Part shown: in pieces, positions 52-45,184 of the stretch
Position numbering within the stretch: the stretch's first letter is position 1
How the letters are laid out: every line of letters begins with the position of its first letter
Origin: Hyphomicrobiaceae bacterium
Lineage (GTDB): Bacteria; Pseudomonadota; Alphaproteobacteria; Rhizobiales; Hyphomicrobiaceae
Assembly (NCBI GenBank): GCA_041397645.1
Contig: JAWKWE010000008.1
Span: forward strand, 28,394-92,393
Direction of reading: 5' to 3'
DNA: 64,000 nucleotides
Made by a program: the position numbers and the translations under genes
The notes under the pieces: generated by a model
The model's input: the letters and a program-made list of their open reading frames with translations, nothing else
Databases searched by the model: none
What the model was told of the DNA's origin: nothing

Positions 52-743
52 CGACTTCGCGACGCGCCACCAAGCGAAGTCCGAACCGGCAATTGCTCCG
101 CGAGCGTGAAATCGTGAACGCGGCACGTCTGGTCTTCGAGACGGCCGGGTATGACAACGCATCGATGGCCGAAATAGCTGCGCGCGTGGGAATCGTGGAG
201 GGTACCGTCTATCTGTACTTCGACAGCAAGAAAGACCTGATGCACCGCGTAATCGCGGAATGGTACGAAGGTCTGATTGCGTCGGTGTCCGAAGGTCTGA
301 CGCGGGTCGTTGGCGTTCGCGCGCGCCTTCGATTTTGTATCCTGAGGCACCTACGTGTCTACGTCGAAGATACCGGGCTCGCCAATCTCATGATCAGGGA
401 ATTACGGCGCGACAGGAAGTTCTATGAGACCGAGGTCTATTCCTTGAACAAGCGCTACGCTGCTTTTGTGACGGCGGAAATTCTCGACGGCATCAAGCAG
501 GGTGAATTCAGTCCGGATATTGTTCCGGAAATTGTGCGTGATCTGATATTCGGCGGCATCGAGCATTGCGCCTATCGGATCCTGTCGGGTCGCGGCGGCC
601 TGGATATCGATCTCGTCGCCGATCGCATTCTCGGTACGCTCTGGCCAGGCATCGCGGCGCAGAATGACGCGTCGTCAGCTTCGATCGAGCACCGCATTGC
701 CAGACTCGAGAAATTGGTCGTCGCTAGTGGCGAGGATTCATGA
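48..743 (+). CDS. TetR/AcrR family transcriptional regulator
   Basis: N-terminal HTH REIVNAARLVFETAGYDNASMAEIAARVGIVEGTVYLYFDSKKDL; 231 aa; ATGA overlap with the next gene. Confidence 0.93.
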   Translation: MTTSRRATKRSPNRQLLREREIVNAARLVFETAGYDNASMAEIAARVGIVEGTVYLYFDSKKDLMHRVIAEWYEGLIASVSEGLTRVVGVRARLRFCILRHLRVYVEDTGLANLMIRELRRDRKFYETEVYSLNKRYAAFVTAEILDGIKQGEFSPDIVPEIVRDLIFGGIEHCAYRILSGRGGLDIDLVADRILGTLWPGIAAQNDASSASIEHRIARLEKLVVASGEDS

Positions 744-2200
744 AGCACATCCTTGTCGCAAACCGGGGCGAGATCGCGCTGCGGGTTATTCGCACAGCCC
801 ATCGCTTGGGCATCAAGACCACCCTCGCGGCCCACGCCGTGGATCTCAAATCCATCGCTTCCCAAGCAGCCGGTCAGACGGCGCAGATCTTTGGCGATCC
901 CCCGGTTTCGGCGTATCTTGATATCCCCCAATTGACCAAGGTTGCGTTGGACTGCGGTTGCGACGCGGTTCATCCCGGTTATGGATTTCTCTCGGAAAAT
1001 GCAGAATTTGCCGCGCAAGTAGAGGCTGCGGGTCTTTGCTGGGTCGGACCATCACCCGATCTCATCGATCTGATGGGAGACAAGATACGCGCGCGCGAAT
1101 TCGCGCATCGGTGCGGTCTGCCATTGGTGCCGTTCGCCCTGGACTCCGGTCATAAGGAGTTTCGCGACGCAGTTCTTGCCTTGGGATTTCCCGTGCTTGT
1201 CAAGGCGGCGGCCGGAGGCGGCGGGAAGGGCATCAAGATTGTTCGCCAGGAAATCGATCTGGATCGAGCGATCGCCCAGGCGCGTAGCGAAGCGCTCAGG
1301 TGCTTTGGTGACGAAAGGATTTATGCAGAAAGGTTTGTCGAAAGACCGCGGCACATCGAAGTGCAGATTCTCGCCGATCAATTTGGCAAAGTCATCCATC
1401 TAGGCGAACGTGAATGCTCGATTCAGCGGCGCTTCCAGAAGATTATCGAGGAGACGCCGTCAGTTGCCATCGATACCGATCTGCGCTCAAAGATTTGCGG
1501 GGCGGCAGTCGCGCTGGCCAAGGCATCTCAATATCGAAATGCGGGTACAGTCGAGTTTATTCTCGGTCCGGATCACGAATTCTATTTTCTCGAAGTGAAT
1601 ACCAGATTGCAAGTCGAACATCCCGTAACGGAGCTGGTGACGGGGTTGGATTTAGTCGAATGGCAACTGCGAATCGCGTCCGGGGAAGCATTGCCATTCG
1701 AGCAATCTGATGTCGCCAGCAACGGGCACGCGATCGAATGTCGGATCAACGCTGAAGATGTTCTATCGGGCTTTGTTCCCAGTTCAGGAATACTGGCTCG
1801 CTACATTGAACCGCATGGGGAGGGAATTCGCGTCGATAGCGGAGTATGCGAACTAGATCGGCTAACTAGCTCGTTTGATCCGATGTTGGCGAAGCTGATC
1901 GTTTGGGGTCCCGACCGGGGATCCACCATCGCTCGAACTGAAGACGCGCTCGGCAACTTCTGCCTTCTCGGCCCGGAGACGAACATCGCCTATTTACGCG
2001 CGCTGCTCAAGCAGCCCGATTATGTTGCGGGGCATATCGACACCGGCTTTATCGATCGCCATCACGAAGAAATATTGCGGCGCATGCAGGTCGAGAGTCG
2101 GCTTGACGCGAGAGTGGCCGCCGCATTTATCGCACTGATGATTCCGGAAGCCCGCGTTTCGTATTCGAGCCTTAGCGAACTTGGAGCGTGGAAGAACTAA
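740..2200 (+). CDS. Biotin carboxylase subunit (BC domain only) of acyl-CoA carboxylase module 1
   Basis: ILVANRGEIA, HPGYGFLSEN, GGGGKG, ERECSIQRRFQK, FLEVNTRLQVEHPVTE and RVDSG motifs; ends before any biotinyl domain. Confidence 0.93.
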   Translation: MKHILVANRGEIALRVIRTAHRLGIKTTLAAHAVDLKSIASQAAGQTAQIFGDPPVSAYLDIPQLTKVALDCGCDAVHPGYGFLSENAEFAAQVEAAGLCWVGPSPDLIDLMGDKIRAREFAHRCGLPLVPFALDSGHKEFRDAVLALGFPVLVKAAAGGGGKGIKIVRQEIDLDRAIAQARSEALRCFGDERIYAERFVERPRHIEVQILADQFGKVIHLGERECSIQRRFQKIIEETPSVAIDTDLRSKICGAAVALAKASQYRNAGTVEFILGPDHEFYFLEVNTRLQVEHPVTELVTGLDLVEWQLRIASGEALPFEQSDVASNGHAIECRINAEDVLSGFVPSSGILARYIEPHGEGIRVDSGVCELDRLTSSFDPMLAKLIVWGPDRGSTIARTEDALGNFCLLGPETNIAYLRALLKQPDYVAGHIDTGFIDRHHEEILRRMQVESRLDARVAAAFIALMIPEARVSYSSLSELGAWKN

Positions 2201-2698
2201 ATGACTGCGGTGTTGAGGTCAGGTTCCGAGTTTCTGGCGGTCATGGCGGAAGCGTCCGGGCGAGTCATGGTCGGGCGCAGCGAGGTGCGGATTGAGAATT
2301 TCAGTCGCAACGGCGGAACGCTGGCGGGTACGCTCGGAGGAACGCGATGGAAAATCGAGGTGGCTCGGATTGGCGATCGGATCATTGCCTGGTCGAGCGG
2401 GCGGATCTGGCAGGCTGAGATTCAGCTCCTTCCGGTATCTGAAATCGACGCGGCGGGTGAACACTCGGGCCAGATCACGGCTCCCATGCCCGGCTCCATC
2501 GTCCAAGTTCATGTTTCGCCGTCCCAGCCTGTCGCCGCAGGGGACGTCATGGTCACGATCGAAAGTATGAAAATGGAGACGGCGCTGGTCGCGATACGCG
2601 ACGGGGTGGTCGCGTCCGTCCTCGTCGAAGCCGGAACAACAGTAGACCGCGGAGCCCTATTGGTATCGTTCATGAAGCAGGAGGAAGCGGCTTCATGA
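2201..2698 (+). CDS. Biotin carboxyl carrier subunit (BT-like linker plus biotinyl domain) of carboxylase module 1
   Basis: ITAPMPG and the biotinylation motif ESMKME; starts in the same frame directly after the TAA of the BC gene. Confidence 0.9.
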   Translation: MTAVLRSGSEFLAVMAEASGRVMVGRSEVRIENFSRNGGTLAGTLGGTRWKIEVARIGDRIIAWSSGRIWQAEIQLLPVSEIDAAGEHSGQITAPMPGSIVQVHVSPSQPVAAGDVMVTIESMKMETALVAIRDGVVASVLVEAGTTVDRGALLVSFMKQEEAAS

Positions 2699-4308
2699 TG
2701 CGGCGAATAGTGTCTCGTGTGAATACTCAGAGCACGGAGTTCAAGGCCAATCACGCAAGAATGTCTGGTCTCGTCCAGGCTCTACGCGAACAGCAGCGTG
2801 CCACACGGTTCGATCGTCCGAAACGCGATCTTGAACGCATAGGGCGCCAGAACAAGCTCTTTGTCCGTGAGCGGCTCGAGCTTCTCATCGATGCTGGCAG
2901 CCCATTTCTCGAATTGTCTTCTCTTGCGGCGTGCCGCAGTTATGACGGGGAAGCGCCGGGTGCCGGTCTGCTAACTGGCATCGGGCTTGTCAACGGCCGC
3001 CAGGTGATGGTCCACGCCTCCGACCCGAGCGTCAAGGGAGGTGCCTGGTATCCGCATTCGGTCAAGAAGATCATAAGGGCGCTCGACATCGCCTTGGAAA
3101 ATCATCTGCCCGTCGTACATCTTTGCGACAGCGCAGGCGGATATCTCCCGCTTCAGCATGAATTCTTCGCGGACCGTCAATATGGCGGACGTATTTTTCG
3201 TAACCAGGTCGAGTTGTCAAAGCGCGGCATTCCCCAGGTCGCCGTCGTGTTGGGCCACTGTACTGCGGGGGGTGCTTACGTTCCGGCGTTATCGGATTAC
3301 AACATTATTGTCCGCGGCAATGGGGGCATCTTCCTGGGCGGTCCGCCGCTCGTGAAGGCGGCAACGGGAGAAGTGGTGTCAGCGAACGACTTGGGCGGGT
3401 GCGACGTCCACACACGCATTTCAGGTACAGCTGACTATCCGGCGGCCAATGAGCAAGATGCCATTCATCTTGCCCGCGAGATTGTCGGCGAAGCTTTTCC
3501 TCCGGCCCAGCCATGGCTGGCGGATCGAATAGAGCCGGAACAACCGTTTTATGAGCCGGATGAACTCTACGGAATCATTCCGGCAGACCGTAAACGGTCA
3601 TTTGACGTTCGCGAAGTCATTGCGCGCATCGTCGATGGAAGCAGGTTTCACGAATATCAGCCGGCCCTCGGCACGACCCTGGTCTGTGGTTTCGCGCGAG
3701 TATTCGGATGGAAAATCGGCATCGTTGCGAACAACGGCGTTCTCTTCAGTGACAGTTCGCTCAAGGCGGCCCATTTCATCCAGCTATGCGACCGGGACAA
3801 GGTTCCGCTTCTCTTTCTGCAGAACATTACAGGATTCATGATCGGGCGGGAGTACGAAGCGCGCGGCATCACCAAAGACGGCGCCAAGATGATCACCGCG
3901 CAGGCAAGCGTGAGAGTGCCGAAGTTTACTGTGATGGTGGGGAGCTCGTTTGGTGCTGGTAACTACGGCATGTGCGGCAGGGCGTTCGATCCCAGATTTC
4001 TGTTCTCATGGCCGAACAGCCAGATCGGTGTGATGGGTGGCGACCAAGCTGCGAATACGTTGACAGATATCAAGCGAAGTCAGCTCGCGCGAAACGGGGG
4101 CGTCGCCGATGAAGACGAAATCGCGTCGATGCGTAATGCAATCCTGGAAGACTATGAACGGCATTCGGATGCCTATTGGTCGACGTCGGAGCTATGGGAC
4201 GACGGCTTGCTTGATCCGGCCGACACACGAAACGCATTAGCAGTCGCGATCGCCGCATCTTTGCATCGGCCTCTGGACCCTTTGGGATCTGGGATCCTGC
4301 GACTATGA
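2695..4308 (+). CDS. Carboxyltransferase (MCC-beta-like) subunit, module 1
   Basis: [48 protein letters not shown] and [10 protein letters not shown] motifs. Confidence 0.92.
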
Positions 4309-4333
4309 AGAAGGGTCTGTACGGAGAGAGCAC

Positions 4334-5503
4334 ATGAACTTGCTGAGCTATTCGCAGAGCGACTTGGTGGAGGAACTGCGCTCGACTGCCAGAGGGTTCT
4401 CCGATGGTGAGATCGCACCCCGCGTGGAGGAAATGGATCGCTCCGACAGGTTCCCTCGAGAACTCTGGCCCCAAATGGGAAAACTTGGATTGTTCGGCAT
4501 CACGGCGCCCATGGAATTTGGCGGGCTCGGTCTGGGATATCTCGCGCATGTCGTTGTTACCGAAGAGATCTCGCGCGGGTCGGGTGCGTTGGGCGTGAGC
4601 TATCTTGCTCACTCGAACCTTTGCATCAATCAGATTTCCCTGAATGGGACCACGGCACAGAAGGAGAAATATCTGCCGAAACTTATTTCGGGAGAGTGGG
4701 TAGGAGGGCTGGCGATGTCGGAGCCCGAGGCAGGATCTGACGTTGTCAGCATGCGCCTCGAGGCTACCCGCCGAGGTGACGGCTACGTGCTGAATGGCAC
4801 CAAGATGTGGATCACTAATGGGCCCGTCGCTGACCTCCTGGTGGTCTATGCCAAGACTGACCGGAAGGCGGGGAAGCGCGGTATCACCGCCTTTGTCGTC
4901 GAAAGGTCGGCAAGTGGCTTCAGCGTTGCGCAGACGCTGGATAAGCTTGGCAATCGAGGTTCTCCCACCGGGGAGCTGGTTTTCCAGGACTGCGTCGTTC
5001 CCGCAGAGAATGTGCTGGGAAAGGTCGGTGGTGGTGTCCGGGTCTTGATGAGTGGCCTCGACTACGAGCGGACCGTGGGCGCTGCGATCCCGCTCGGCAT
5101 TATGCAGGCGTCGATGGACGTAACGCTTCCGTATGTCCGTCAACGAAAGCAGTTTGGCGAGCCGATCGGCAGCTTTCAGCTGATGCAAGGAAAATTGGCC
5201 GACATGTACACGCGGTTATCGACGTCGAGGTCCTATCTCTACACGGTTGCGCGGGCACTCGATGACGGGATTCCTGGCAGTACGGCGAACCGCAAGGATG
5301 CCGCAACCGCCTATCTGGTATGTGCCGAGAACGGCATCTGGGTCGCGGATCAGGCGCTGCAAAGCTTCGGCGGCAACGGTTACATCAACAGCTGCCCGGC
5401 AGGACGATTGCTTCGTGATGCGAGATTGCACACGATCGGCGGTGGAACGGCCGAGATTCGTCGCTGGCTCATCGGTCGCGAGCTTTACCAAGAGTCGCAA
5501 TAG
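4334..5503 (+). CDS. Isovaleryl-CoA dehydrogenase-like acyl-CoA dehydrogenase (LiuA/IVD family, diverged)
   Basis: [42 protein letters not shown] and GGNGYIN motifs; the C-terminal loop reads LHTIGGGT rather than the canonical LYEIGAGT. Confidence 0.88.
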
Positions 5504-5530
5504 GACGTACTCCGAGAGAAGGTGGCAGCA

Positions 5531-7276
5531 ATGACCAATCAAGCGGAGCTACTCAGAAAACTGACGGAGGAAGGCGAGAGCGTTGTTGCGCGCTTGAGGA
5601 AGTGGGCCGCCGAAACACCCGACCGCCGATTCTTCTTTTATGGGGAAGACCGCACCGGTCTGAGCTTCCGGCAGTTCGACGAAGTGACGGATTGCGTTGC
5701 TGGAAATTTCGCGGCGAGGGGCATCAGGAAAGGCGATCGTGTTGCGATCTTGGCCCGGAATCAAAAGCTCTCTGTTTTGTCGATGTTTGCGATCTGGAAG
5801 GCAGGCGCGGTATTCTGTCCGATCAATTTCAATTACACGGGCGCGCTCCTTCATTCGCTCATTCTGGACCTTGAGCCATCTCTGCTTATTGCGGATGACG
5901 AAGCAAAGCCTGCGATTGATGAGGTCTTGCGGCTTGGTCGCGGCCTCGCAGATATCAAGCGAATTGTGATCGATTGTCCCGGACAGCTACGGTCCATTCC
6001 CAATCATGCGTCCGCCGAGGTGCCGGTTCTGGAAAGCTGGTCCGCATATCTGGAACCCTCGCAGGCTCCTCCAATCGACCTCGATTTCGATGATATCGCG
6101 AATATCATCTATACGTCAGGAACAACTGGACCTTCAAAGGGCGTGCTTCAGACTCATCGCTGGATCAACCAGATGACGTTCTTCTTGCGGAAGCTGCTCA
6201 CGCCCGATGATGTGATCTACAATGATCTACCACTTTATCACATCGGAGGCGCAATCTGTAATGTTGCACGTGCCGCATGGGTGGGCTGTGAGGTGGCGTG
6301 CTGGGACCGCTTCAGTGTGAGCGACTTCTGGGATCGCATCGAAACAAGTTCTGCAAGCTGTGCGATCTTGCTCGATGTCATGATTCCCAGATTGATGAAA
6401 GCGCCAGCAAGCATTCGGGATCGCAACAACACCTTGAACAAGGTAAATCTTCAGCCGCTGCCGCTCAATCACAATGAAATCGCCCGGCGGTTTGGATTTG
6501 ATGTCGTCGCCACCGGGTTTGGCCAAACCGAAAGCGGAAATTCATTGGTCGCTTATATCCTTGAGACCGATGAGGAGACTGGAACACCGTCATCGATCCG
6601 GCGAGGCATGGGCCGAGAGGGGATCCGGCGCGTTATGGAGGCGTATGATGCAACCGTGGTTTCGGCATCCGAAGCCTCTTGGAAGGGTTTCATGGGACGC
6701 GAAACCATGTTCGTGGACGCGACGATTCTCGATGAACATGATCGAGAATGCAAACCGGGCGTGGCCGGCCAATTGGCGATCCGGCCCAAAGTACCGGGTT
6801 TACTGTTTTCCGGCTATCACAGGCGTCCCGAGGACTCCCTCAAATCGATGCGGAATTTCTGGTTCCATACCGGCGATGTGGCACGCAAGGAGCCTAGCGG
6901 CATCTTCACCTACATCGACCGGATGGCGGATCGAATCCGGGTGCGCGGCGAGAATATCTCCTCTTTCCAGATAGAGGATATCTTCAACCAGAATCCGTCG
7001 ATCAGCATTTGCGCTGCATTTCCCGTTCCTGCGCTAGAAGGCGATGAGGACGACGTGGTTGTTTTCGTTGTCCCCTCAAAGGACGTTCCCGACCTGGAGA
7101 AAGGTCTACGAGAATGGATCAAGACGGCGATGCCGAAATTCATGCAACCGAAATATATCCGTATTGTTGATGACATTCCGCGCACGCCGACGAACAAGAT
7201 CGAAAAATTCAAACTCAAGAGGATGTTCCTCGAACAACGCGCCAATGGATTGTCGTCAGCAGGGAGCAAGGGATGA
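5531..7276 (+). CDS. ATP-dependent acyl-CoA ligase (CaiC-like AMP-binding enzyme)
   Basis: YTSGTTGPSKG P-loop, FGQTE, FHTGD, RIRVRGENISS and PRTPTNKIEK. ATG 5531 preferred over GTG 5522. Confidence 0.9.
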   Translation: MTNQAELLRKLTEEGESVVARLRKWAAETPDRRFFFYGEDRTGLSFRQFDEVTDCVAGNFAARGIRKGDRVAILARNQKLSVLSMFAIWKAGAVFCPINFNYTGALLHSLILDLEPSLLIADDEAKPAIDEVLRLGRGLADIKRIVIDCPGQLRSIPNHASAEVPVLESWSAYLEPSQAPPIDLDFDDIANIIYTSGTTGPSKGVLQTHRWINQMTFFLRKLLTPDDVIYNDLPLYHIGGAICNVARAAWVGCEVACWDRFSVSDFWDRIETSSASCAILLDVMIPRLMKAPASIRDRNNTLNKVNLQPLPLNHNEIARRFGFDVVATGFGQTESGNSLVAYILETDEETGTPSSIRRGMGREGIRRVMEAYDATVVSASEASWKGFMGRETMFVDATILDEHDRECKPGVAGQLAIRPKVPGLLFSGYHRRPEDSLKSMRNFWFHTGDVARKEPSGIFTYIDRMADRIRVRGENISSFQIEDIFNQNPSISICAAFPVPALEGDEDDVVVFVVPSKDVPDLEKGLREWIKTAMPKFMQPKYIRIVDDIPRTPTNKIEKFKLKRMFLEQRANGLSSAGSKG

Positions 7277-8442
7277 GGCCGGCGTTTGATGAGGCGGAGG
7301 AGCTGTCGCTGCTGCGTGGCACCCTGCGCCGTTTTGTAAATGACCGCATGTTGAGGCCTGAAGCAGCGCGATGGGATGCAGAATCGATCTTTCCCGTCGA
7401 GGTGTTTCGCGAACTTGCAGCGCTTGGAGTGTTCGGCCTAACGATTCCGGAGGAATATGGCGGGGCTGGACGAAACATTCCGGCCACGATGGTCGTAATC
7501 GAGGAATTGTCGCGACGCAGCATCGCGATGTCGATACCTTACGTACTCGCTGCCTGCTATGGCGGCATGAACATCCTCGAGTGCGGGAGTGAAGACCAGA
7601 AGCGCACATTGCTTCCAAAATGCGCTACCGGCGAATTGATGCTCGCGTTCGGTGTAACTGAACCGGATGTTGGTGGTGACGTAGCCAGCGTCAAGACCAC
7701 TGCCAGGCGCACTGGTGACGTGATCAAGGTCAATGGAACAAAGCGGTATATCACCGGGGCCAATATCGCAGACTACATCTATACCCTAGTCCGGTCCGAC
7801 GAGACCTTGCCAAGATACAAAAATCTTTCAATCCTGCTGATCCCGAGAACCGCGAAGGGAGTCGAGATCCGCAAGCTGGACATGCTCGGGCTACGAAGCG
7901 GCGCCTGGACCACCGAAATCATCTTAGACGACGTCGAGGTGTCGGCCCAGGACATCGTGGGTGGAGAGCCGGGCTGGAACAAGGGCTGGTCGTACATCGC
8001 TGGACCTGGCCTCGATGTCGAGAAGCTCGAAGTTGGCGCGATCGCTCTGGGAATCGCCGAGGCGGCTGTCGACGACGCCTGGGAATATGCTGAGACGCGC
8101 AAGCAATTCGGAAAGCCCATCAGCAACTATCAAAACATCCGGCATATGCTTGCCGATGCCAGAACGGACCTGCACGCGTGCCGATTGATGCTGTACAGCG
8201 CGGCAGGTCTGGCGCAGGCCGGACGCCCTTGCGGAATCGAGAGCTCCATGGCGAAGCTGTTCATCTGCGAGCGGGCAAAACAGGTCGTTCTTAACTGCCA
8301 ACTGATCTTCGGCGCATATGGATGCGACCTTGATTTGGATATGCAGCGGTACGTGCGGGACATCCTTATTCTTCCGATCGCTGGCGGGTCGTCGGCCATT
8401 CAACGAAATAACCTAGCAAACAGAATGCGCCTTCGTCTCTAG
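7273..8442 (+). CDS. Acyl-CoA dehydrogenase
   Basis: TIPEEYGG, VTEPDVGGD, NGTKRYIT, RKQFGKPI and GGSSAIQRN motifs. Confidence 0.92.
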   Translation: MRPAFDEAEELSLLRGTLRRFVNDRMLRPEAARWDAESIFPVEVFRELAALGVFGLTIPEEYGGAGRNIPATMVVIEELSRRSIAMSIPYVLAACYGGMNILECGSEDQKRTLLPKCATGELMLAFGVTEPDVGGDVASVKTTARRTGDVIKVNGTKRYITGANIADYIYTLVRSDETLPRYKNLSILLIPRTAKGVEIRKLDMLGLRSGAWTTEIILDDVEVSAQDIVGGEPGWNKGWSYIAGPGLDVEKLEVGAIALGIAEAAVDDAWEYAETRKQFGKPISNYQNIRHMLADARTDLHACRLMLYSAAGLAQAGRPCGIESSMAKLFICERAKQVVLNCQLIFGAYGCDLDLDMQRYVRDILILPIAGGSSAIQRNNLANRMRLRL

Positions 8443-8467
8443 CCAGACGAAGATTCGGAGAAGCAAA

Positions 8468-9349
8468 GTGAAGTATGGATCCGTATTCCGTCCGGGCCTT
8501 TTTGCTGACCATCACTTCGTGATAACCGGCGGCGGCAGCGGGATCGGCCGTTGTACCGCGCACGAACTCGCCTCCTTGGGAGCGCACGTCGCCTTGGTAG
8601 GTCGTGATCCTGATCGGTTGATAGCCGTGGCCGCAGAGATCGAATCGACCGGAGCCATAGCCCCGACCACTCATGTCTGCGATATCCGCGACGAGGAAGC
8701 GTCAAAAAGAACGATTGCGGCAATTCTGATCCAACACGGCCAGATCGATGGTCTCGTGAACAATGCGGGCGGGCAGTTTCCCTCACCATTGAGGGATATA
8801 ACTCGGAAGGGTTGGGACGCCGTCATTGCCAACAACCTGACCGGCGGCTTCTTGATGGCGCGGGAGTGCTTCACACAGTGGATGGAGGCAAACGGCGGCT
8901 CCATCGTCAATATGATCGCGGACATGTGGTGGTCGATGCCCGGAATGGGACATTCCGGAGCCGCGCGGGCGGGAATGCTGAATTTCACGATGACTGCTGC
9001 CGTGGAATGGGCCGCCGCTGGCGTGCGGGTCAACGCTGTCGCGCCTGGTGCAATCGCGTCGTCAGGGCTGGATACCTATTCGGAGCCAATGAAGGCTCGG
9101 CTGCAGGAGTACTGGCGGCATATCCCGGCAAAGCGACTTGGAACGGAGGCCGAGTGCTCCGCGGCGATTGTCTTTCTGCTTTCGCCGGCAGCTGCTTTCA
9201 TCAGCGGCAGCTGTTTGCGTATCGATGGCGCTCAGCCGAACGGCAAGAGTATCTGGCCCATGCCGGACCACAAGAAGTCAAGGCCGTTCCGCGGCTTTCC
9301 GTTAGAACGTGCTCCGGCATATCTGGAGCCGCGTGAGCCTAAGGAATAA
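8468..9349 (+). CDS. SDR oxidoreductase, AtuB-like / enoyl- or dienoyl-CoA reductase clade
   Basis: GTG start after GGAG; SVFRPGLF, TGGGSGIG, NNAGGQF and PGMGHSGAARAG (no YxxxK), closely resembling Pseudomonas AtuB. Confidence 0.88.
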   Translation: MKYGSVFRPGLFADHHFVITGGGSGIGRCTAHELASLGAHVALVGRDPDRLIAVAAEIESTGAIAPTTHVCDIRDEEASKRTIAAILIQHGQIDGLVNNAGGQFPSPLRDITRKGWDAVIANNLTGGFLMARECFTQWMEANGGSIVNMIADMWWSMPGMGHSGAARAGMLNFTMTAAVEWAAAGVRVNAVAPGAIASSGLDTYSEPMKARLQEYWRHIPAKRLGTEAECSAAIVFLLSPAAAFISGSCLRIDGAQPNGKSIWPMPDHKKSRPFRGFPLERAPAYLEPREPKE

Positions 9350-9415
9350 CCATGCCACAGGGTGGCGTCGCGGCGCGTGACCATTGAAGGGGGAATGCCT
9401 GCATAAGGAGTGACT

Positions 9416-15610: not shown

Positions 15611-15645
15611 AGAGGCAGTTCCATATTTACGGAGGAAAGCACACC

Positions 15646-16455: not shown

Positions 16456-16479
16456 GTCGTGCGGAAAGGGGATCGTTAC

Positions 16480-26506: not shown

Positions 26507-26552
26507 TTTCGTGCAAAGTCGATTTTAAAGGGCTTTGCGGGAGGACCATTCA

Positions 26553-32712: not shown

Positions 32713-32724
32713 GTGCGCCAGACC

Positions 32725-37438: not shown

Positions 37439-37559
37439 TCCAGGAATCCGGGAGAACTGCAACGCGTGTGAATTCGCACTTGACGACGCATTTGTTTCGC
37501 AGGTCGGTCAATTCCAATGTCTGTCACCGCATACAGTGTCGAGCGGTAGCCGATCGTCG

Positions 37560-37961
37560 TCACATTACCAGAAAGTGGAATAGCCCCTTGGCCACGGGGT
37601 TCTCTGGCTCCGCCTGCCAACTTACGGCTTGGACACTTGCCATCCTGCGCCCTTTCCTCAACACCACAGCTCGCACATTCAGTGGCTCTGCGATCGCAGG
37701 CCTTAGGTAATCCACCGTAAGATTGATCGGCTTCGGACTCCGTTGTTCAAGGTCTTGCCAAACTGCTACGGATGCGACCACTTCCATAACGCTGGCAATG
37801 ATGCCGCCATGGTAGTAGTTCATGACAGGATTGCCTATGTAGTTTTCAGAAAAAGGCATCCGACCGGAGACTTGTCTGTCCTCGATGTCCACGATGGTGA
37901 AGTCAAGAAACCTGAAGAAGGGCCTTGTCATCAGTAGTGCAGTTGTCTCCTCGGGAGTCAT
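37560..37961 (-). CDS. PaaI-family hotdog thioesterase
   Basis: IGNP..YYHGGIIAS, NLTVDYLRPA and GRRMA. Confidence 0.85.
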   Translation of the reverse strand: MTPEETTALLMTRPFFRFLDFTIVDIEDRQVSGRMPFSENYIGNPVMNYYHGGIIASVMEVVASVAVWQDLEQRSPKPINLTVDYLRPAIAEPLNVRAVVLRKGRRMASVQAVSWQAEPENPVAKGLFHFLVM

Positions 37962-38440
37962 GCTGGGTCCCGCGGTTTCTGGTCATCGAAAAAGCTTTTC
38001 TCGCCTCGTGTCAAAGCGAAGGTAGCAGCGCCCCGTGCAACTTCGTCGCCCTTGTCATCATCAAACCAAATGACGCCGGAGTTGAAAGCAATATGGCGAG
38101 TCTGGTGGTAGCATTTGGCGCGCACCAGCACATCAGCGCGCGATTGTGCTGGCCTGAGGTAATCCACGCGCAAGTCAAGCGTGGCCATGGTACTGATGTC
38201 GTCGACTTCAATGAAATTGACGATTCCAAATACGCTATCCAGTAGCGCAGTCAGTACTCCGCCATGGAGAAGGGTCGGCGGCTCGTCAATACAGAAAATG
38301 GGGTTAAACGGCATGCGGACTGTCACGCCGTCAGGCCCGAGCCCCTCGATCCGAAGGTTCATCTGAGTAATGAGACCTTTTGCCCTCGTGATCCAGAGAG
38401 TGCTTATTTGCTCAAAGCGTTGCTGATCTTTGAGGAGCAT
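37958..38440 (-). CDS. PaaI-family hotdog thioesterase
   Basis: LHGGVLTALLD and ATLDLRVDYLRPA; ATGA overlap with its partner. Confidence 0.87.
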   Translation of the reverse strand: MLLKDQQRFEQISTLWITRAKGLITQMNLRIEGLGPDGVTVRMPFNPIFCIDEPPTLLHGGVLTALLDSVFGIVNFIEVDDISTMATLDLRVDYLRPAQSRADVLVRAKCYHQTRHIAFNSGVIWFDDDKGDEVARGAATFALTRGEKSFFDDQKPRDPA

Positions 38441-38555
38441 CGGTTCGAACCTAGATGATGATTGCAGGAGGGACTTGGCGGAGATTTTCGGTTACTTGGG
38501 CAACTTCTAGGGAAAGGCGGCGTGGTACGACCCGCATGGTAAGGGTGGCAAGAAA

Positions 38556-39407
38556 TCAGCCGTGTCGTCGATCGCCGCGTTCGCGGTTAACAAACATTTC
38601 GGTGTTGATCATGTCGCGCGCGTCGTGTGCGAGGTGGAGGGTTTCCCCACCGTCCACGTACCAATCTTCACCGGTGATGAATTTGCCCAGCTTTGACGCA
38701 AGAAAGATAATCGCGCCAGCGACATCCTCAGGGCCGCCCATGCGGTTCAGAACGGAACGGTTGAGTTCACTCCATCTCTGCGGGGGAATCGGATAGCGTC
38801 CGAGCGCCTCCGTCTTGACGGTGCCGGGTGCTACGCAATTGAGCCTGATTCCATATTGTGCCCACTCGGCGGCGAGGGTCTTCATTAATCCGGTCACGCC
38901 CGCGCGTGCAGCGGCGGTGTGAGCGAAGCCGGTTAAGGCGGTGCGGCTCACCGCCGTCACAAAGACGATGGAGCCGCCATGGTCGAACATGAAGTGATCG
39001 GCGACGGCCCTCGTCATCTGCCGTGATCCAATTAGATTGTTACGAATTACGGCCTCAAAACCTTTATTGGTAATATCGCGTGCGGCGGCGACATACTGCC
39101 CACCCGCGTTGTTGACCAACACATCCAAGTGCCCGTAGTCCTCCTTGATGCGGCGCATCGCAGAAGCAACACTTCCTTCATCTCGGATGTCGCCCGAAAT
39201 CACTAATGCTTCGCCGCCATGAGATCTAATCATCTCAGCGGTTTGCCGCAGCGGCCCCTCTTGGCGAGCGAAAAGCACGACTTTTGCTCCGCAGCGTGCC
39301 ATTTCGATCGCGGTTGCGCGGCCCATACCAGAGCCGCTGCCGGTGACGAGCGCGACTTGATCAATCATTAGGCTAGGGGCGAATCGACCCCCGATTTCCT
39401 CGTTCAT
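38556..39407 (-). CDS. SDR oxidoreductase, AtuB/dienoyl-CoA-reductase-like clade
   Basis: TGSGSGMG, NNAGGQY, AHTAAARAG and YITG-like FITGE..YVDGG. Confidence 0.85.
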   Translation of the reverse strand: MNEEIGGRFAPSLMIDQVALVTGSGSGMGRATAIEMARCGAKVVLFARQEGPLRQTAEMIRSHGGEALVISGDIRDEGSVASAMRRIKEDYGHLDVLVNNAGGQYVAAARDITNKGFEAVIRNNLIGSRQMTRAVADHFMFDHGGSIVFVTAVSRTALTGFAHTAAARAGVTGLMKTLAAEWAQYGIRLNCVAPGTVKTEALGRYPIPPQRWSELNRSVLNRMGGPEDVAGAIIFLASKLGKFITGEDWYVDGGETLHLAHDARDMINTEMFVNRERGDRRHG

Positions 39408-39598: not shown

Positions 39599-41197
39599 AT
39601 GAGGCGACTTTCTTCATCGATCAACATCACTTCCGAACGTTTTGTTCGCAACCGCGAAGCGCAGAACGCGCGCACAGCGCTTCTGCGCGAGCGTATGGCG
39701 GAGGCAACACGAGGTGGTCGTATCGATATGGTCGAGCGGCATCGCGCTCGCGGTAAGTTGCCGGTCCGTGAGCGTATCGACTTGCTTGTCGATCCCGGAA
39801 CGGCATTTCTTGAGCTTTCCAGCCTCGCCGCATGGGGACAGTATGGGGGAGAGGTTCCGGGTGCCGGTATCGTCACTGGCATTGGGATCGTCTGTGGGTT
39901 GCCCTGCATGGTCATCGCGAACGATGCGACGATCAAAGGCGGATCATTCTATCACGAGACGGTGCAGAAACATATTCGCGCCCAGGAGATTGCCGAGCAG
40001 AATCGATTGCCGTGCCTTTATCTGGTTGATTGCGGAGGCGCCTATCTGCCCGAGCAAGACCGCGTGTTTCCCGGTGGTCGCGATTTCGGTAATGCCTTTT
40101 ATCGGCAATGCAATATGTCAGCGTCGGGGCTGCCGCAGATATCCGCCGTATTTGGCGGTTGCACTGCTGGTGGAGCTTATATTCCCGCTCTTTCTGACGA
40201 AGTTATAATGGTGCGGGGCAATGCACGCATTCATTTGGGCGGGCCGTCGATCGTCAAGGTCGCGATCGGTGAGCAAGTCGATGGCGAAACTCTCGGTGGA
40301 GCCGAGATGCACACTCGCGTCTCCGGAGTAAGCGATCATCTTGCGGACGACGAGTATCACGCCCTCACGCTCATGCGCGATATCGTCGCTAGTTCGGGCC
40401 AGAAACGCACAACCGCGCCTGCAGACCGGCCGCGGCCTCCACTGTACGATCCCGAGCAGCTTCTAGGCGTCGTGAGTGCGGATCGCAGGGAGCCTTATGA
40501 CGTGCGCGAGCTCCTGCTGCGTATCATCGATGCCGGCGAATTCAACGAGTTCAAGCCCGATTGGGGGGGCACATTGGTATGCGGCATCGCACGCATTCAC
40601 GGCTATCAAGTCGGCATCTTGGGCAACAACGGTGCACTTCTATCAGAGTCTTCGCTCAAAGGTGCGCAGTTCGTTTCGATGTGCGACCAAAGAAGTCTGC
40701 CACTTCTCTTCCTGCACAACGTCCCCGGCTTCATGGTCGGCACGGAGGCCGAGCGCGGCGGCATCGCCAAGAATAGCGCCAAGTTGGTCTATGCCTTGTC
40801 AATCGCCAAAGTTCCCAAACTTTCGCTGATCGTGGGCGGCTCCTACGGTGCGGGTAACTATGGAATGTGCGGTCGTGGATTTGCGCCGCGCTTCTTGTTC
40901 GCATGGCCGACGGCAGAAGTTTCCACCATGTCAGCGGATATTGCAGCAAACGTGATGATGGAGTTGCGCCTACAAAAGGGAGGCGAACAGAACCAAATGC
41001 AGACGGAGTTAAAGGAGATAGAGCTCGCGGTGCGTGCACAATATGCGGAACAATCGAGTCCTTACTATGCAACGTCACGGCTATGGGACGATGGTCTGAT
41101 TGAGCCAATTCAAACTCGCGACGTCCTCGGGCTGTGTCTCGGCATCGTAACGTCGGTGCCCGAGGCCGGGCGCCACACGCCCGTTTTTCGAATGTGA
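39599..41197 (+). CDS. Carboxyltransferase (MCC-beta-like) subunit, module 3
   Basis: IANDATIKGG, RAQEIAEQNRLPCLYLVD, CTAGGAYIPA, GNNG and [10 protein letters not shown]. Confidence 0.93.
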   Translation: MRRLSSSINITSERFVRNREAQNARTALLRERMAEATRGGRIDMVERHRARGKLPVRERIDLLVDPGTAFLELSSLAAWGQYGGEVPGAGIVTGIGIVCGLPCMVIANDATIKGGSFYHETVQKHIRAQEIAEQNRLPCLYLVDCGGAYLPEQDRVFPGGRDFGNAFYRQCNMSASGLPQISAVFGGCTAGGAYIPALSDEVIMVRGNARIHLGGPSIVKVAIGEQVDGETLGGAEMHTRVSGVSDHLADDEYHALTLMRDIVASSGQKRTTAPADRPRPPLYDPEQLLGVVSADRREPYDVRELLLRIIDAGEFNEFKPDWGGTLVCGIARIHGYQVGILGNNGALLSESSLKGAQFVSMCDQRSLPLLFLHNVPGFMVGTEAERGGIAKNSAKLVYALSIAKVPKLSLIVGGSYGAGNYGMCGRGFAPRFLFAWPTAEVSTMSADIAANVMMELRLQKGGEQNQMQTELKEIELAVRAQYAEQSSPYYATSRLWDDGLIEPIQTRDVLGLCLGIVTSVPEAGRHTPVFRM

Positions 41198-41208
41198 GGG
41201 TTGCTACC

Positions 41209-42006
41209 ATGACCCTAGGCATGGAAAAGACCATCAGCGTCGACGTGAATGCCTTGGGGGTGGCGACCCTGACGCTCAACCGTGCAGAAAAGCACAATGC
41301 GATCAATGGAGAGCTGATCGCTGACCTGGGTGCAGCAGTTCAGTCTCTGGCGGGCGACCCAGCCGTTCGTGTCGTAGTGTTGACGGGGGCTGGCAACAGC
41401 TTTTGCGCGGGAGGCGACTTCAATTGGTTCGCGTCGAATGTGGAAAAGACTCGTGCTGAGCGAGTGGCAGAGAGCGCGTCGTTGGCCCATTTGCTGCGTG
41501 GGCTCGATAGCTTGCCCAAGCCGTTGATTGGACGGATCAATGGTCCGGCCTATGGCGGTGGCGTCGGCCTGATTTCAGTGTGCGACTATACGATCGGAGT
41601 CGAAGGTTCAAAATTCGGACTTACGGAGGTCCGACTGGGTCTGCTGCCCGCCACTATCTCACCCTACGTCGTCGCAAGGATCGGAGCGGCCGCCTCGCGC
41701 GAGACGATGCTCTCGGGGGCGCTGTTCGATTGTGCGCGTGCCAGGCGCATCGGCCTTTTGACAGAGGTCGTGGCTCCCGGAGAGCTAGACAATGCGGTTG
41801 AGCGCATTGTCAATGCACATCTTCAGGCCGCTCCGGGTGCAGTAGCGGACACCAAGCGGCTCATTGCGTATGTCGCGCGTCACGAACTCGATGCCAACAT
41901 GATCTACACCGCTGACCGACTGGCCGACGCCTGGGAGACTGAAGAGGGAGTTGAAGGCATCAGTTGTTTTTTGAATAGGGGCACACCCTCATGGCGCGTG
42001 AAATGA
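41209..42006 (+). CDS. Methylglutaconyl-CoA hydratase-like crotonase (LiuC/AtuE type)
   Basis: NRAEKHNA, FCAGGD, GGGVGLISVCD and FGLTEVRLGLLPATISPYV. Confidence 0.83.
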   Translation: MTLGMEKTISVDVNALGVATLTLNRAEKHNAINGELIADLGAAVQSLAGDPAVRVVVLTGAGNSFCAGGDFNWFASNVEKTRAERVAESASLAHLLRGLDSLPKPLIGRINGPAYGGGVGLISVCDYTIGVEGSKFGLTEVRLGLLPATISPYVVARIGAAASRETMLSGALFDCARARRIGLLTEVVAPGELDNAVERIVNAHLQAAPGAVADTKRLIAYVARHELDANMIYTADRLADAWETEEGVEGISCFLNRGTPSWRVK

Positions 42007-44018
42007 GTTTCAAGCGCGTTCTCATTGCCAATCGAGGCGAGATTGCGCGTCGCATCCATCGCGCCTGTACCAAGCTTGGACTTGAAAGTGTTGCTACGTT
42101 TTCCGAGGCCGACCGGAACGCCCCTTTCGTCGCCGAAGCCAATCACGCTATCTGCATTGGCCCGCCCGCACCTTTGCGGAGTTATCTGAACGTCGACGCG
42201 ATCTTGGAGGCCGCGCAAGTCGTGGGAGCCGACGCGGTACATCCAGGCTATGGTTTCTTGTCGGAAAGCGCCGAATTTGCTCACCGCGTGACCGAGGCCG
42301 GGCTCGTCTTCGTCGGTCCGTCACCCGAGGCAATAACGCGGATGGGTTCGAAGATCGAAGCCAAGGCAGTCGCGGAGGCGGCTGGCGTGCCAGTTCTGCC
42401 CGGTTATCGCGGTGCAGATCAATCAGAAGCGCGACTGCTTTCAGAAGCCGAGGGCCTCGGCGTGCCATTTATCGTCAAAGCCAGCGCCGGCGGCGGTGGG
42501 CGGGGAATGCGGCTTGTCACGCAGCTTGGGGAGGCGATCGACGCGATCCGCGAAGCCAGAGCCGAAGCGCGCGCTGCCTTTGGCGATGCGACCGTATTTC
42601 TTGAGCGTTATGCTCCCCGCGCGCGACACGTCGAAGTACAGATCCTGGGGGACAGTTACGGTAATATCGTGCACCTGTGGGATCGCGATTGCTCGCTCCA
42701 ACGCAACCACCAGAAGCTTGTCGAAGAAGCGCCGGCTCCCGGCCTGCCGGCGCCGCTGCGCGAGAAGATGCTCGATGCCGCTGTAAGCCTCGCCCGCGCT
42801 ATTGGTTACAGCTCGGCTGGCACTGTGGAATACCTTTACGATTTTGAACGCGGGGACTTCTATTTCCTGGAAATGAATACCCGGCTTCAAGTCGAACATC
42901 CCGTCACCGAGGCGATCACCGGCATCGATCTCGTCGAATGGCAACTGCGAGTCGCGCGCGGCGAGGAATTGCCCTTCGCCCAGCGCGACATCGGCTGTTC
43001 TGGTCATGCAATCGAGATTCGCCTCGCAGCTGAAAACCCGAGCGACCGATTCCGTCCCGAAACGGGCACAATTACTCTCTGGGAGCCTCCGGTGGCGCCA
43101 GGTCTCCGGCTCGACTCGGGAGTCGAAACAGGCAGTGTTGTAAGCCATCATTATGATTCGATGGTCGCCAAGCTCATTGCGAAGGCAGACGATCGTGAAG
43201 GTGCGATCCGCAAGGCGGTTGCGGCGCTCGACGGTTTTTTAATCGGGGGCGTAGGCATGAATATCGCCTATCAGCGTGCACTTCTCATTCATCCAGATTT
43301 CGCCGCGCTGCGCCACCACACTGCAGCGCTCGAACAGCTTTTTCCCGGTGGATGGAAGGCGCCAGAGGTCGACAAGGAAAGCCAAGCACTGGCTGTGTTG
43401 GCGCTGCACCAACATTTGGCCAGGGCCGAGCAAATCGACCCGTGGCACTCCTTGGGGGGATGGCGTGTAACCGATCTAGCGGGCCGCCCCGGCGCGGCAC
43501 GCTATTTTTTGGTGGGTGACCAGGTCGAAGAGCTCTTGGTGGTCGGGCAGAAGCTTCAGATGGAAGTGCGCTTCAAAGAGATGACGCCGATCTCGGTCGA
43601 AGACGTCCAATTCCGCGACGGACGGTTGACCGGGCGCGTTGCCGGCCGACCGTTTGCCCGCATCGTGCGCTTGGAACGCGGCGACATGAACTGGCGCATT
43701 CATCTTTCGGGCCGCGATGGCGTGCTGCAGGTGCACATACTCACACTAGACGATCTTCATGGTGGCGATGCCGGTGCTGCTTCAGCTGACGCAGACACTC
43801 TGAAAGCTCCAATGCCCGGCACCGTCGTCGAGCTCAGTACCAGACGAGGCGACCTGGTCGAACAAGGTCAGACATTGGTCGTGCTCGAGGCAATGAAGCT
43901 ATTGCAAAACTTAACCGCACCCTTGAGCGGCACCGTAGAAGAGATTTTTTGCTCGACGGGCGACACCGTGTCTAGCGGTGCCTCCCTTGTCCGATTAGCA
44001 CGGAAGGAAGAAATATGA
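42003..44018 (+). CDS. Carboxylase alpha subunit (BC plus biotinyl domain), module 3
   Basis: VLIANRGEIA, HPGYGFLSE, DRDCSLQRNHQK, FLEMNTRLQVEHPVTE and biotin motif EAMKLL. Confidence 0.93.
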   Translation: MSFKRVLIANRGEIARRIHRACTKLGLESVATFSEADRNAPFVAEANHAICIGPPAPLRSYLNVDAILEAAQVVGADAVHPGYGFLSESAEFAHRVTEAGLVFVGPSPEAITRMGSKIEAKAVAEAAGVPVLPGYRGADQSEARLLSEAEGLGVPFIVKASAGGGGRGMRLVTQLGEAIDAIREARAEARAAFGDATVFLERYAPRARHVEVQILGDSYGNIVHLWDRDCSLQRNHQKLVEEAPAPGLPAPLREKMLDAAVSLARAIGYSSAGTVEYLYDFERGDFYFLEMNTRLQVEHPVTEAITGIDLVEWQLRVARGEELPFAQRDIGCSGHAIEIRLAAENPSDRFRPETGTITLWEPPVAPGLRLDSGVETGSVVSHHYDSMVAKLIAKADDREGAIRKAVAALDGFLIGGVGMNIAYQRALLIHPDFAALRHHTAALEQLFPGGWKAPEVDKESQALAVLALHQHLARAEQIDPWHSLGGWRVTDLAGRPGAARYFLVGDQVEELLVVGQKLQMEVRFKEMTPISVEDVQFRDGRLTGRVAGRPFARIVRLERGDMNWRIHLSGRDGVLQVHILTLDDLHGGDAGAASADADTLKAPMPGTVVELSTRRGDLVEQGQTLVVLEAMKLLQNLTAPLSGTVEEIFCSTGDTVSSGASLVRLARKEEI

Positions 44019-45184
44019 ATACCGGTCATGAGCAAACGAAATCGACCGCTTTTCCGTTCGACGAAGACATAGAAATGATCCGCGTTCAGCTGCGGCGGTT
44101 CATCGAGACCGAAGTCATTCCGGCGGCCGACGCGTGGGAGGAAAAAGGCGTGGTACCTCGCGAAGTCCTGCGCGATATGGGTAAGCTTGGCGTGTTGGGA
44201 ATGCGCTACGATCTCGAATATGGCGGTGCCGAGCTCGACACGATGGCGAGCGTGATGCTGGCCGAGGAACTGGGGCGCTCCACCTTCGGTGGATTTTCGG
44301 CGACGGTTCTGGTCCATACCGACATGGCGTCGCCACATTTGGAGAATGCCGGGACGCCCGAGCAAAAGGCGCGTTGGATGCCCGCTATCACCAGCGGTGA
44401 GAAGGTAGCCGCGGTGGCCGTCACCGAGCCGGACGCGGGATCGGACGTCGCGGGTATGCGTACTCGTGCGGTGAAAAAGGGATCCGATTGGGTGTTGAAC
44501 GGCACCAAGATGTTCATCACCAACGGCGTGTACGCCGATCTGTATTTTGTGGCCGCCAAGACTGATCAGGAGGCGAAGGGCTCCCGCGGGATCACAATGT
44601 TCGCCGTCGAGAAAGGCGCACCCGGCTTTTCGGTAAGTCGAGCGCTGAAGAAAACGGGATGGCTGTGTTCGGACACAGCCGAACTGGTTTTCGAGAATGT
44701 TCACGTGCCCGCTGAAAACGTGCTCGGTGAAGTCAATCGAGGTTTCTATGCAGTGATGAAAAATTTCCAAAACGAAAGGATTGTGCTGGGCACACTAGCG
44801 GTTGCCGAAGCGCAGACAGCTCTGAACTTGACAGTTGCTTACGTTAAGCAACGGAAGGCGTTCGGCGGCGTGCTGTGGGACAAGCAGGCTGTCCGCCAAC
44901 GCCTGGCTAATTGCCAGGCCCAGATCGAAGCGGGGCGTCAATTAGCTTATCACGCTGCCCGACTGGACTGCGAAGGTCATGACTGTGTGCGGGAAGTTTC
45001 AATGGTCAAGGCGTACTGCGGTGAGCTGGTGAATCGGGTTCTCTACGACTGCATTCAATTCCACGGGGGGATGGGTTACATGCGCGAGATGGCGGTAGAG
45101 CGGATGTCGCGCGACGCCCGAATTCATGCCATTGGAGGCGGTGCAAGCGAGGTCATGCTGGAAGAGGTTGCTAAACGAATGTAG
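44015..45184 (+). CDS. Acyl-CoA dehydrogenase (LCAD/AtuD-like clade)
   Basis: VHTDMASPHL, VTEPDAGSDVAG, NGTKMFITNG, FQNERI and IGGGASEVM. Confidence 0.9.
   Translation: MNTGHEQTKSTAFPFDEDIEMIRVQLRRFIETEVIPAADAWEEKGVVPREVLRDMGKLGVLGMRYDLEYGGAELDTMASVMLAEELGRSTFGGFSATVLVHTDMASPHLENAGTPEQKARWMPAITSGEKVAAVAVTEPDAGSDVAGMRTRAVKKGSDWVLNGTKMFITNGVYADLYFVAAKTDQEAKGSRGITMFAVEKGAPGFSVSRALKKTGWLCSDTAELVFENVHVPAENVLGEVNRGFYAVMKNFQNERIVLGTLAVAEAQTALNLTVAYVKQRKAFGGVLWDKQAVRQRLANCQAQIEAGRQLAYHAARLDCEGHDCVREVSMVKAYCGELVNRVLYDCIQFHGGMGYMREMAVERMSRDARIHAIGGGASEVMLEEVAKRM

Follow-up and report, generated by a model that had tools for sequence, protein, structure and literature searches.

The 64,000-nt stretch of Hyphomicrobiaceae contig JAWKWE010000008.1 analysed here (the window, in whose numbering all feature coordinates are given) carries three complete carboxylases of the 3-methylcrotonyl-CoA carboxylase (MCC)/geranyl-CoA carboxylase (GCC) type, each with a carboxyltransferase (CT) of about 535 aa and adjacent biotin carboxylase (BC), BT and biotin carboxyl carrier protein (BCCP) functions. 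With a probability of roughly 0.6, judged from sequence comparison, we read the region as a horizontally mobile catabolic island for acids whose methyl or alkyl branch at C3 blocks beta-oxidation, with three carboxylases that would each be specialised for a substrate of its own. The window was annotated with a six-frame list of open reading frames (ORFs) and with Pfam and NCBIfam scans, and appeared as a dense, nearly single-strand array of catabolic genes. The three carboxyltransferases are referred to as CT1, CT2 and CT3, and their respective homologue families as families 1, 2 and 3. In public annotation all three carboxylases are named methylcrotonoyl-CoA carboxylase, and our literature search found no paper on this island or on the three families. 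To our knowledge, among biotin carboxylases of the MCC-like branch only the specificities for 3-methylcrotonyl-CoA and geranyl-CoA have been characterised.

The initial annotation had placed the carboxylase modules at 740-4308, 31105-34740 and 39599-44018, and the Pfam domain content confirmed all three. In module 1 a BC gene (740-2200, + strand), encoding the BC domain and the first part of the BT domain but no BCCP, is followed by a 165-aa carrier protein (2201-2698, +) with the rest of the BT domain and the BCCP (Biotin_lipoyl, aa 91-156), and by CT1 (2695-4308, +; Carboxyl_trans, 537 aa). The alpha subunits of modules 2 and 3 are single BC-BT-BCCP polypeptides of 675 aa, alpha2 (32713-34740, +) directly following CT2 (31105-32712, +; Carboxyl_trans, 535 aa), and alpha3 (41991-44018, +) separated from CT3 (39599-41197, +; Carboxyl_trans, 532 aa) by a hydratase gene. 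The motifs were intact in all three, i.e., the BC glycine loop, NxRxQVEHPVTE and the ECRI Arg, TAGGAY and GAG of the CT, and the biotinylation motif MK(M/L). The BC of module 1 has the GGGG loop, NTRLQVEHPVTE and the ECRI Arg, and the biotinyl-Lys of this module lies within SMKME (nt 2570-2572). In alpha2 the biotinyl-Lys is found in SMKLE (nt 34612-34614) and in alpha3 in AMKLL (nt 43896-43898), both with MKL in place of the usual MKM, while CT2 has GAGYLAM where GAGNYGM is usual, with the replacement N449Y conserved across family 2. Ratios of dN/dS, computed against moderately diverged orthologues, were 0.03-0.19 for all tested genes: 0.03-0.08 for the CTs (CT1 0.059, CT2 0.028, CT3 0.083) and 0.06-0.19 for alphas, hydratase, lyase and acyl-CoA dehydrogenases (ACADs), including 0.10 for the BC and 0.19 for the BCCP gene of module 1, 0.11 for alpha2 and 0.17 for alpha3. 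Taken together, the intact motifs and the low dN/dS indicate that all three carboxylases are maintained as working genes.

The best PDB matches of CT1-3 and of the alphas were MCC subunits, and in the domain set (CT; BC-BT-BCCP) and the catalytic motifs the three carboxylases resemble MCC of Pseudomonas aeruginosa (LiuB/LiuD, 3U9R/3U9S), human (MCCC1/MCCC2) and Mycobacterium tuberculosis (AccD1/AccA1). The CTs scored 593-622 bits against MCC beta and about 230-280 bits against subunits of the propionyl-CoA carboxylase type; scores against GCC beta (PDB 5ikl), with which they were compared by bit score only, were 435-472 (chain 5ikl_B: CT1 472, CT2 435, CT3 453), all below the MCC beta scores. 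By these scores all three CTs belong to the MCC/GCC clade and not to that of propionyl-CoA carboxylase. They differ from MCC in their degree of divergence. The MCC betas of P. aeruginosa, M. tuberculosis (AccD1), human (MCCC2) and PDB 9tps are 65-70% identical to one another, and that of Thalassospira, from an operon with CT, enoyl-CoA hydratase (ECH), alpha and 3-hydroxy-3-methylglutaryl-CoA (HMG-CoA) lyase genes in this order, is 74% identical to P. aeruginosa LiuB and 70% to the human protein. In contrast, CT1-3 are only 50-58% identical to these real MCC betas, carry family-specific substitutions at MCC-invariant sites, and are 46-48% identical to one another. The best 120 matches of each CT query, taken as query-centred family sets, did not overlap; identity was 73-74% within families, 45-48% between them and about 52% to MCC. 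Each family was monophyletic in a neighbour-joining tree (200 bootstraps; support 1.00), in which family 1 and MCC were separated from families 2 and 3 (0.91). NCBIfam held no specific model for any CT or alpha, and only generic models matched, below their cut-offs. On these identities and this tree none of the three is classed as a canonical MCC, and each CT is taken to head a separate, deeply conserved family.

The segment that the initial annotation had quoted as substrate pocket contains the residue that experiments have identified as setting the selectivity of MCC and GCC. Phe191 of MCC beta fills a pocket that in GCC, where Gly162 is found, holds the second isoprene unit; MCC with F191G gains geranyl-CoA activity and becomes essentially inactive on 3-methylcrotonyl-CoA, and GCC with G162F behaves in the opposite way (Jurado et al., 2015; PMC4673880). 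The PDB alignments place residue 191 of human MCCC2 at the Phe in DHFGRTF, which is position 15 of the 19-residue pocket string. The three quoted strings were letter-exact and all differ from MCC, for which the comparison string was exactly that of P. aeruginosa LiuB (PDB 3u9r). The segments comprise aa 150-168 of CT1 (nt 3142-3198), aa 149-167 of CT2 (nt 31549-31605) and aa 149-167 of CT3 (nt 40043-40099). In CT1, Gly164 (nt 3184-3186, in YGGRIF) replaces Phe191 of MCC, at the position of GCC Gly162, and DSAGG stands for DSGGA; CT2 and CT3 resemble MCC in retaining the Phe (Phe163 in both), and in CT3 Arg193 of MCC is changed to Asn. These states are typical of the families: in the best-120 sets the Phe191 column held Ala in 104 and Gly in 16 members of family 1, Phe in 118 of 119 members of family 2 and Phe in 119 of 120 members of family 3. 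The signature of MCC, DSGGA.LPRQ..VFPDR.HFGR.F.NQA, is matched by DSAGGFLPLQ...F.DR..[A/G]GRIFRNQ..LSK in family 1, DSGGAFLP.Q.NIFPD.GQFGSIF..QV in family 2 and DCGGAYLP.QD.VFPD..HFGN.F.RQC in family 3. Where the four MCC references are invariant, family 1 shows, for example, G174A/A176G, Y169H and V171C; family 2 has H190Q and N449Y, and family 3 S173C, R193N and N197R. Since CT1 has Gly instead of the pocket-closing Phe191, its predicted substrate is bulkier than 3-methylcrotonyl-CoA. Across the pocket segment CT1-3 were aligned with MCC, without gaps, and therefore their loop has MCC length; the pocket loop of GCC is reported to be three residues shorter than that of MCC. On a plasmid of Pseudosulfitobacter pseudonitzschiae (contig L008, 13407-15002) a fourth carboxylase was observed, which is split, family-1-like and 61% identical to CT1; its pocket loop is about four residues shorter (DSAGGYLEEMSGVFAPGGRVF), which recalls the reported shorter loop of GCC. 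The pocket loop seems to be a hot spot of diversification.

Members of the three families were found together in distant hosts. The comparison contigs included L001-L003, L009 (from Bradyrhizobium campsiandrae), L006 (from a plasmid of Nitratireductor thuwali), L008 (plasmid CP070877.2 of P. pseudonitzschiae) and L090 (a metagenome contig). The nearest genome was a 50-kb contig of B. campsiandrae INPA 394B, with 99% aa identity in CT1, and the sequencing runs containing the sequence were metagenomes of bioreactor sludge, drinking water and wastewater. One CT per family, 64%, 87% and 81% identical to CT1, CT2 and CT3, is encoded on the N. thuwali plasmid p1536_2, which also has the transporter and the ACAD/ECH blocks of the island. 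The trio is likewise present on 290-kb plasmids of P. pseudonitzschiae, with four carboxylases within 50 kb, and modules 2 and 3 are arranged on L090 (CT3 89% identical) exactly as in the window. In the plasmid collection, a family-1 CT (at least 60% identity) occurred in 48 records, family 2 in 38 records at 80-90%, followed by a gap to below 58%, and family 3 in 66 records at 80-90%. Most marine plasmids with family 1 carry three to four CT genes; the genera with family-1 plasmids include Sulfitobacter, Sagittula, Roseovarius, Roseibium, Marinovum, Phaeobacter and Paracoccus, and many of the hosts came from diatom, dinoflagellate or coccolithophore cultures. In total, the trio is co-retained across three orders. 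On the N. thuwali plasmid, a gene for the biotin transporter BioY was observed after the equivalent of module 3 (L006 15645-16250), consistent with a high biotin demand of an island with three biotin enzymes. The conserved division into three families, the differences between their pocket loops and their joint retention make three distinct specificities the best reading. Three acyl-CoA specificities had been proposed in the initial annotation, and the proposal is supported indirectly, by the separate families, the pocket signatures, purifying selection and co-occurrence.

Module 1 is set in an Atu-type neighbourhood. The window opens (1-51, +) with the final 16 codons of a gene of the AtuA family (DUF1446), which is truncated by the window edge; these codons specify exactly the C-terminal residues of the L001 AtuA protein (598 aa, PF07287). 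A TetR-family regulator (48-743, +; TetR_N, TetR_C) precedes the BC gene, as in many family-1 loci. Downstream of CT1 there are an ACAD of the isovaleryl-CoA dehydrogenase (IVD) family (4334-5503, +), an acyl-CoA ligase (5522-7276, +), a further ACAD (7273-8442, +), a short-chain dehydrogenase/reductase (SDR; 8468-9349, +) and a medium-chain-type acyl-CoA ligase (9410-11041, +). The IVD-like nature of the first ACAD, as suggested in the initial annotation, was borne out by its PDB scores: 519 and 512 bits against bacterial IVD (4o5m, 4kto), 472 against human IVD and 284 against the next class. ACADs 42-47% identical to it adjoin 20 of the 33 family-1 loci of the genome scan. In these loci, defined by a CT at least 59% identical to CT1, a BC gene was upstream of the CT in every case (33/33) and a separate BCCP match lay between them in about half; matches of 57% or less mostly had the canonical order CT-ECH-alpha(-HMG-CoA lyase). 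The two-gene alpha, in the order BC-BCCP-CT, was also found in Oleomonas, N. thuwali and, twice, P. pseudonitzschiae, and is a trait of family 1. When the BC and BCCP products of module 1 were joined (651 aa), residues 2-643 aligned in one stretch to residues 9-650 of P. aeruginosa MCC alpha (3u9s_A), which places the gene boundary at 2200/2201 inside the BT domain. A frameshift artefact was ruled out as origin of the split, which recurs in family-1 loci and is accompanied by the dN/dS of the BCCP gene given above.

Module 1 was initially described as having no hydratase. However, in L001-L003 and L009, 95% identical in DNA over window positions 1-11019, ECH and AtuA genes are situated immediately upstream of the TetR gene, i.e., just upstream of base 1, and the order ECH-AtuA-TetR-BC-BCCP-CT was recorded in L001, L009 and L010. 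Neither AtuE- nor LiuC-specific resemblance was found for this ECH, which is left unnamed. Synteny with L001-L003 and L009 stops at base 11019, where the relatives have a DDE transposase (L001 18408-19676), and the block around module 1 is a unit with a mobility of its own. Counting the upstream genes of L001 and L009, only module 1 has the full Atu-type neighbourhood of AtuA, TetR, ACAD, ECH, SDR and ligase. Its gene content is like that of the Pseudomonas atu/GCC system (AtuC/AtuF, AtuA, AtuR, AtuD, AtuE, AtuB/G, AtuH; 5IKL), and the likeness is one of gene content, orthology to an Atu protein being checked, by Pfam, for AtuA alone. In this module AtuA occupies the place at which a lyase would be looked for. 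Unlike GCC, CT1 is nearer to MCC (615-618 against 472 bits), has the MCC-length loop, is combined with a split alpha and has a hydratase that is not AtuE-specific. For these reasons it looks like an independent, convergent development and not like an AtuC orthologue.

Module 2 is a conserved seven-gene unit in the order ACAD-ECH-ACAD-ligase-CT-alpha-lyase. It starts with an ACAD close to cyclohexanecarboxyl-CoA dehydrogenase (26535-27734, +; TIGR03207, 528 bits with a cut-off of 575), continues with an ECH (27731-28510, +; ECH_1), a second ACAD (28527-29687, +) and a PaaK-like acyl-CoA ligase (29717-31108, +), and ends, after CT2 and alpha2, with a lyase of the HMG-CoA lyase family (34737-35696, +; dN/dS 0.06). 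The latter is the only gene of this type within the window, and its presence in module 2, noted before, was confirmed by NF004283 (257 bits, cut-off 246). The ECH ORF was listed from 27548, the likely start being the ATG at 27731; a 259-aa orthologue occupies the same position in L005, L008 and L089. A flavoenzyme of the old yellow enzyme/FadH type (2,4-dienoyl-CoA-reductase-like; 24427-26553, -), divergent from module 2, is kept in its position in the same three contigs. In ACAD, ECH and HMG-CoA lyase module 2 is like the Liu system, and it is a self-contained Liu-like unit.

In module 3 the gene order is that of liuB-liuC-liuD, followed by an ACAD. The ECH in LiuC position (about 41209-42006, +; NF005675, 360 bits, cut-off 350) was designated LiuC-like in the initial annotation, in agreement with its 41-44% identity to the same-position hydratase of canonical CT-ECH-alpha-HMG-CoA lyase operons; its best PDB match was 3i47 (169 bits), AtuE (4zu2) scoring 123 bits. 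The ACAD (44015-45184, +) is generic and not IVD-type, with 295 bits against its best PDB match, 2pg0, 270 against long-chain acyl-CoA dehydrogenase and about 250 against IVD. Modules 2 and 3 thus have an ECH of their own and that of module 1 lies beyond the window, and the earlier idea that the modules complement one another in hydratases was not supported. The impression of complementary accessory genes arose largely because module 1 is cut by the window edge and the hydratase of module 2 was overlooked. The HMG-CoA-lyase-like gene is single, and the modules may share this lyase; LiuE of Pseudomonas is reported to serve both the Atu and the Liu pathway.

The remainder of the island consists mainly of further acyl-CoA genes. 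A two-subunit ACAD resembling PimD/PimC (13350-14459, 14456-15610) is followed by an ECH (15646-16455), a 405-aa ORF (16459-17676) with no Pfam or NCBIfam match, a 466-aa double TetR regulator (17673-19073, -) with two TetR_N and two TetR_C_24 domains in tandem, and an SDR (19143-19913). This block, 13350-19913, is also present on Pseudosulfitobacter and Nitratireductor plasmids; the double TetR gene is conserved beside the PimC/D-like ACADs on marine plasmids, and the 405-aa ORF lies inside a conserved ACAD-ACAD-ECH block. Between the SDR and an acetyl-CoA-synthetase-like acyl-CoA ligase (22303-24240, +) there is an insertion sequence (IS) of 2,307 bp (19968-22274), composed of a 436-aa ORF with rve/Mu-transposase-C domains (- strand) and a second ORF, and bordered by 54-nt imperfect terminal inverted repeats (19969-20022 and 22221-22274). 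With a GC content of about 0.65 it stands above the island (about 0.57), and it is missing from the otherwise colinear L089, in which the ligase directly adjoins the SDR. Compared with Bradyrhizobium, which provided the nearest named genome, the GC content of the island is low.

Modules 2 and 3 are separated by an acyl-CoA ligase (35885-37438, +), a 4HBT thioesterase (37958-38440, -) and an SDR (38556-39407, -), in an order (35885-39407) identical in L090. A 4.2-kb block after module 3 (45195-49405), with a 278-aa ORF without family (45350-46186, -) and a Baeyer-Villiger/flavin-type (FMO) monooxygenase (46412-48058, -), is missing from the colinear L090, and the monooxygenase accordingly does not belong to the conserved gene content of the island. 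At 49264-58525 (+) there are an SDR and a transporter of the LIV (branched-chain amino acid) ABC type with an embedded AMP-ligase and two solute-binding proteins. Within this operon (50344-58525) the AMP-forming ligase (51128-53098) has an unusual position between the ATPase and permease genes; the arrangement of transporter and ligase recurs in L090 and on the plasmids of both N. thuwali and P. pseudonitzschiae, and the unit is likely to serve in uptake and activation of acids. The island holds six acyl-CoA ligases. Two other ORFs, 11473-12027 (184 aa) and 62090-63073 (327 aa), had no Pfam match.

LIV-type uptake with its ligase, the six ligases, the ACADs similar to cyclohexanecarboxyl-CoA dehydrogenase and PimC/D and the FadH-type reductase point to branched or alicyclic carboxylic acids. 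Acids of this kind would be imported by the LIV-type ABC system, activated by one of several acyl-CoA ligases and desaturated by an ACAD to a 3-substituted 2-enoyl-CoA. By homology with MCC and GCC, a biotin carboxylase would then carboxylate the gamma carbon, a crotonase would hydrate the carboxylated product, and an enzyme of the HMG-CoA lyase type would cleave it, after which ordinary beta-oxidation could continue; each module would bring its own ACAD and hydratase for its carboxylase. A precedent for the proposed substrates exists in Pseudomonas, whose atu operon is induced by citronellate and other naphthenic acids that are branched and acyclic (PMC11495318). In Pseudomonas, the Atu and Liu systems together similarly comprise paralogous carboxylases with differing pocket sizes for successive or different 3-methyl branches, and one HMG-CoA-lyase-type enzyme may serve several carboxylases. 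The present system differs in that three carboxylases (four on Pseudosulfitobacter plasmids) are clustered in one mobile island, that all CTs fall outside the MCC and GCC clades (for GCC, by bit score), and that alicyclic-acid-type enzymes, i.e., the cyclohexanecarboxyl-CoA-dehydrogenase-like ACAD, the PimC/D-like ACAD and the PaaK-like ligase, are located nearby. A Na+-pumping acyl-CoA decarboxylase (glutaconyl- or methylmalonyl-CoA) was also considered and rejected: each CT adjoins a BC, the membrane subunit is absent, and 1pix and 3gf3 gave only 125-170 bits.

Several points weigh against an island with three substrate-specialised carboxylases. The Phe191 rule has Pseudomonas MCC and GCC as its sole basis. 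Families 2 and 3, with the Phe kept, could still take 3-methylcrotonyl-CoA, and the IVD-type ACAD beside the open-pocket CT1 would suit a short C5 substrate equally well. There are further genomes and plasmids in which family 1 or family 3 stands by itself, and the three need not share one pathway. GCC, M. tuberculosis AccD2 and actinobacterial sequences did not enter the tree, and the verdict on canonical MCC concerns the three CTs of the window, a canonical liu cluster elsewhere in the host being possible. Terpenoid-type, naphthenic-type or methyl-substituted alicyclic acids are candidate substrates in the sense of guesses.

Some of these points would suit a host in which one of the three, in module 1 or 3, is the MCC of leucine and isovalerate degradation, and only the others have new substrates. 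The 519-bit score of the module 1 ACAD to bacterial IVD agrees with it, as do the CT-ECH-alpha order that module 3 shares with canonical operons, the Phe191 kept in CT2 and CT3, and module 2, which by itself supplies every Liu function (ACAD, CT, alpha, ECH and lyase). We nevertheless find such a housekeeping role unlikely, for the beta subunit of canonical MCC varies unusually little, with 65-74% identity between proteins as distant as those of human and alphaproteobacteria, and CT1-3 lie well outside this range; CT1 is without the Phe191 whose loss left MCC essentially inactive on 3-methylcrotonyl-CoA (PMC4673880), the module 3 ACAD is not IVD-type, and the modules reside on plasmids and islands alongside transposases. 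A single pathway, in which incomplete modules would share hydratase and lyase and the carboxylases would act at successive branch points of one substrate, is opposed by the hydratase and the ACAD that each module has of its own, by the separate ligases of modules 1 and 2, and by the many genomes and plasmids with family 1 or 3 alone. The one lyase gene in the window and in the marine islands speaks for it, together with the retention of the trio across three orders and the precedent of Pseudomonas, where GCC is followed by MCC in a single route and the lyase is shared. The carboxylases may act at successive branch points of one substrate; the shared pathway as a whole appears rather improbable. 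Horizontal accumulation of redundant MCC copies, some of them perhaps decaying, would be compatible with the mosaic structure of the island, with its IS elements and insertions, and with the annotation of all three as methylcrotonoyl-CoA carboxylase. Copies of one enzyme would hardly be expected to show mutual identities of 46-48% with family-specific conserved pockets, intact ORFs and catalytic and biotinylation motifs, CT dN/dS of 0.03-0.08 and co-retention of the same three families in distant genera, and we regard this explanation as very improbable.

Beyond the three substrate-specialised carboxylases of a mobile island, which we prefer, a wider proposal can be put forward tentatively. 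The three families and the fourth paralogue of the Roseobacter plasmids may constitute an unrecognised modular set for "3-methyl-branch excision", in which family 1 would be an independent split-alpha analogue of GCC derived from an MCC-like ancestor, and families 2 and 3 might take ring-bearing or dicarboxylic 3-substituted enoyl-CoAs. The hosts, widespread alphaproteobacteria that include phytoplankton-associated members of the Roseobacter group and Bradyrhizobium-like bacteria from water systems, would then be able to mineralise acids that are poly-methyl-branched or alicyclic, for instance isoprenoid acids from phytol, carotenoids or monoterpenes, or naphthenic acids.

In alphaproteobacteria that are common in the environment, three further well-conserved MCC-like families are thus carried jointly by plasmids and islands. 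If their substrates are distinct, the chemistry known for unblocking beta-oxidation of branched and alicyclic acids, including terpenoids and breakdown products of chlorophyll and carotenoids, would become wider and would also cover naphthenic acids of oil-sands and waste water. In that case an annotation error that is widespread would also be put right, and the families, among them one with a naturally split alpha, would provide a natural test set for the influence of the loop around Phe191 on specificity.

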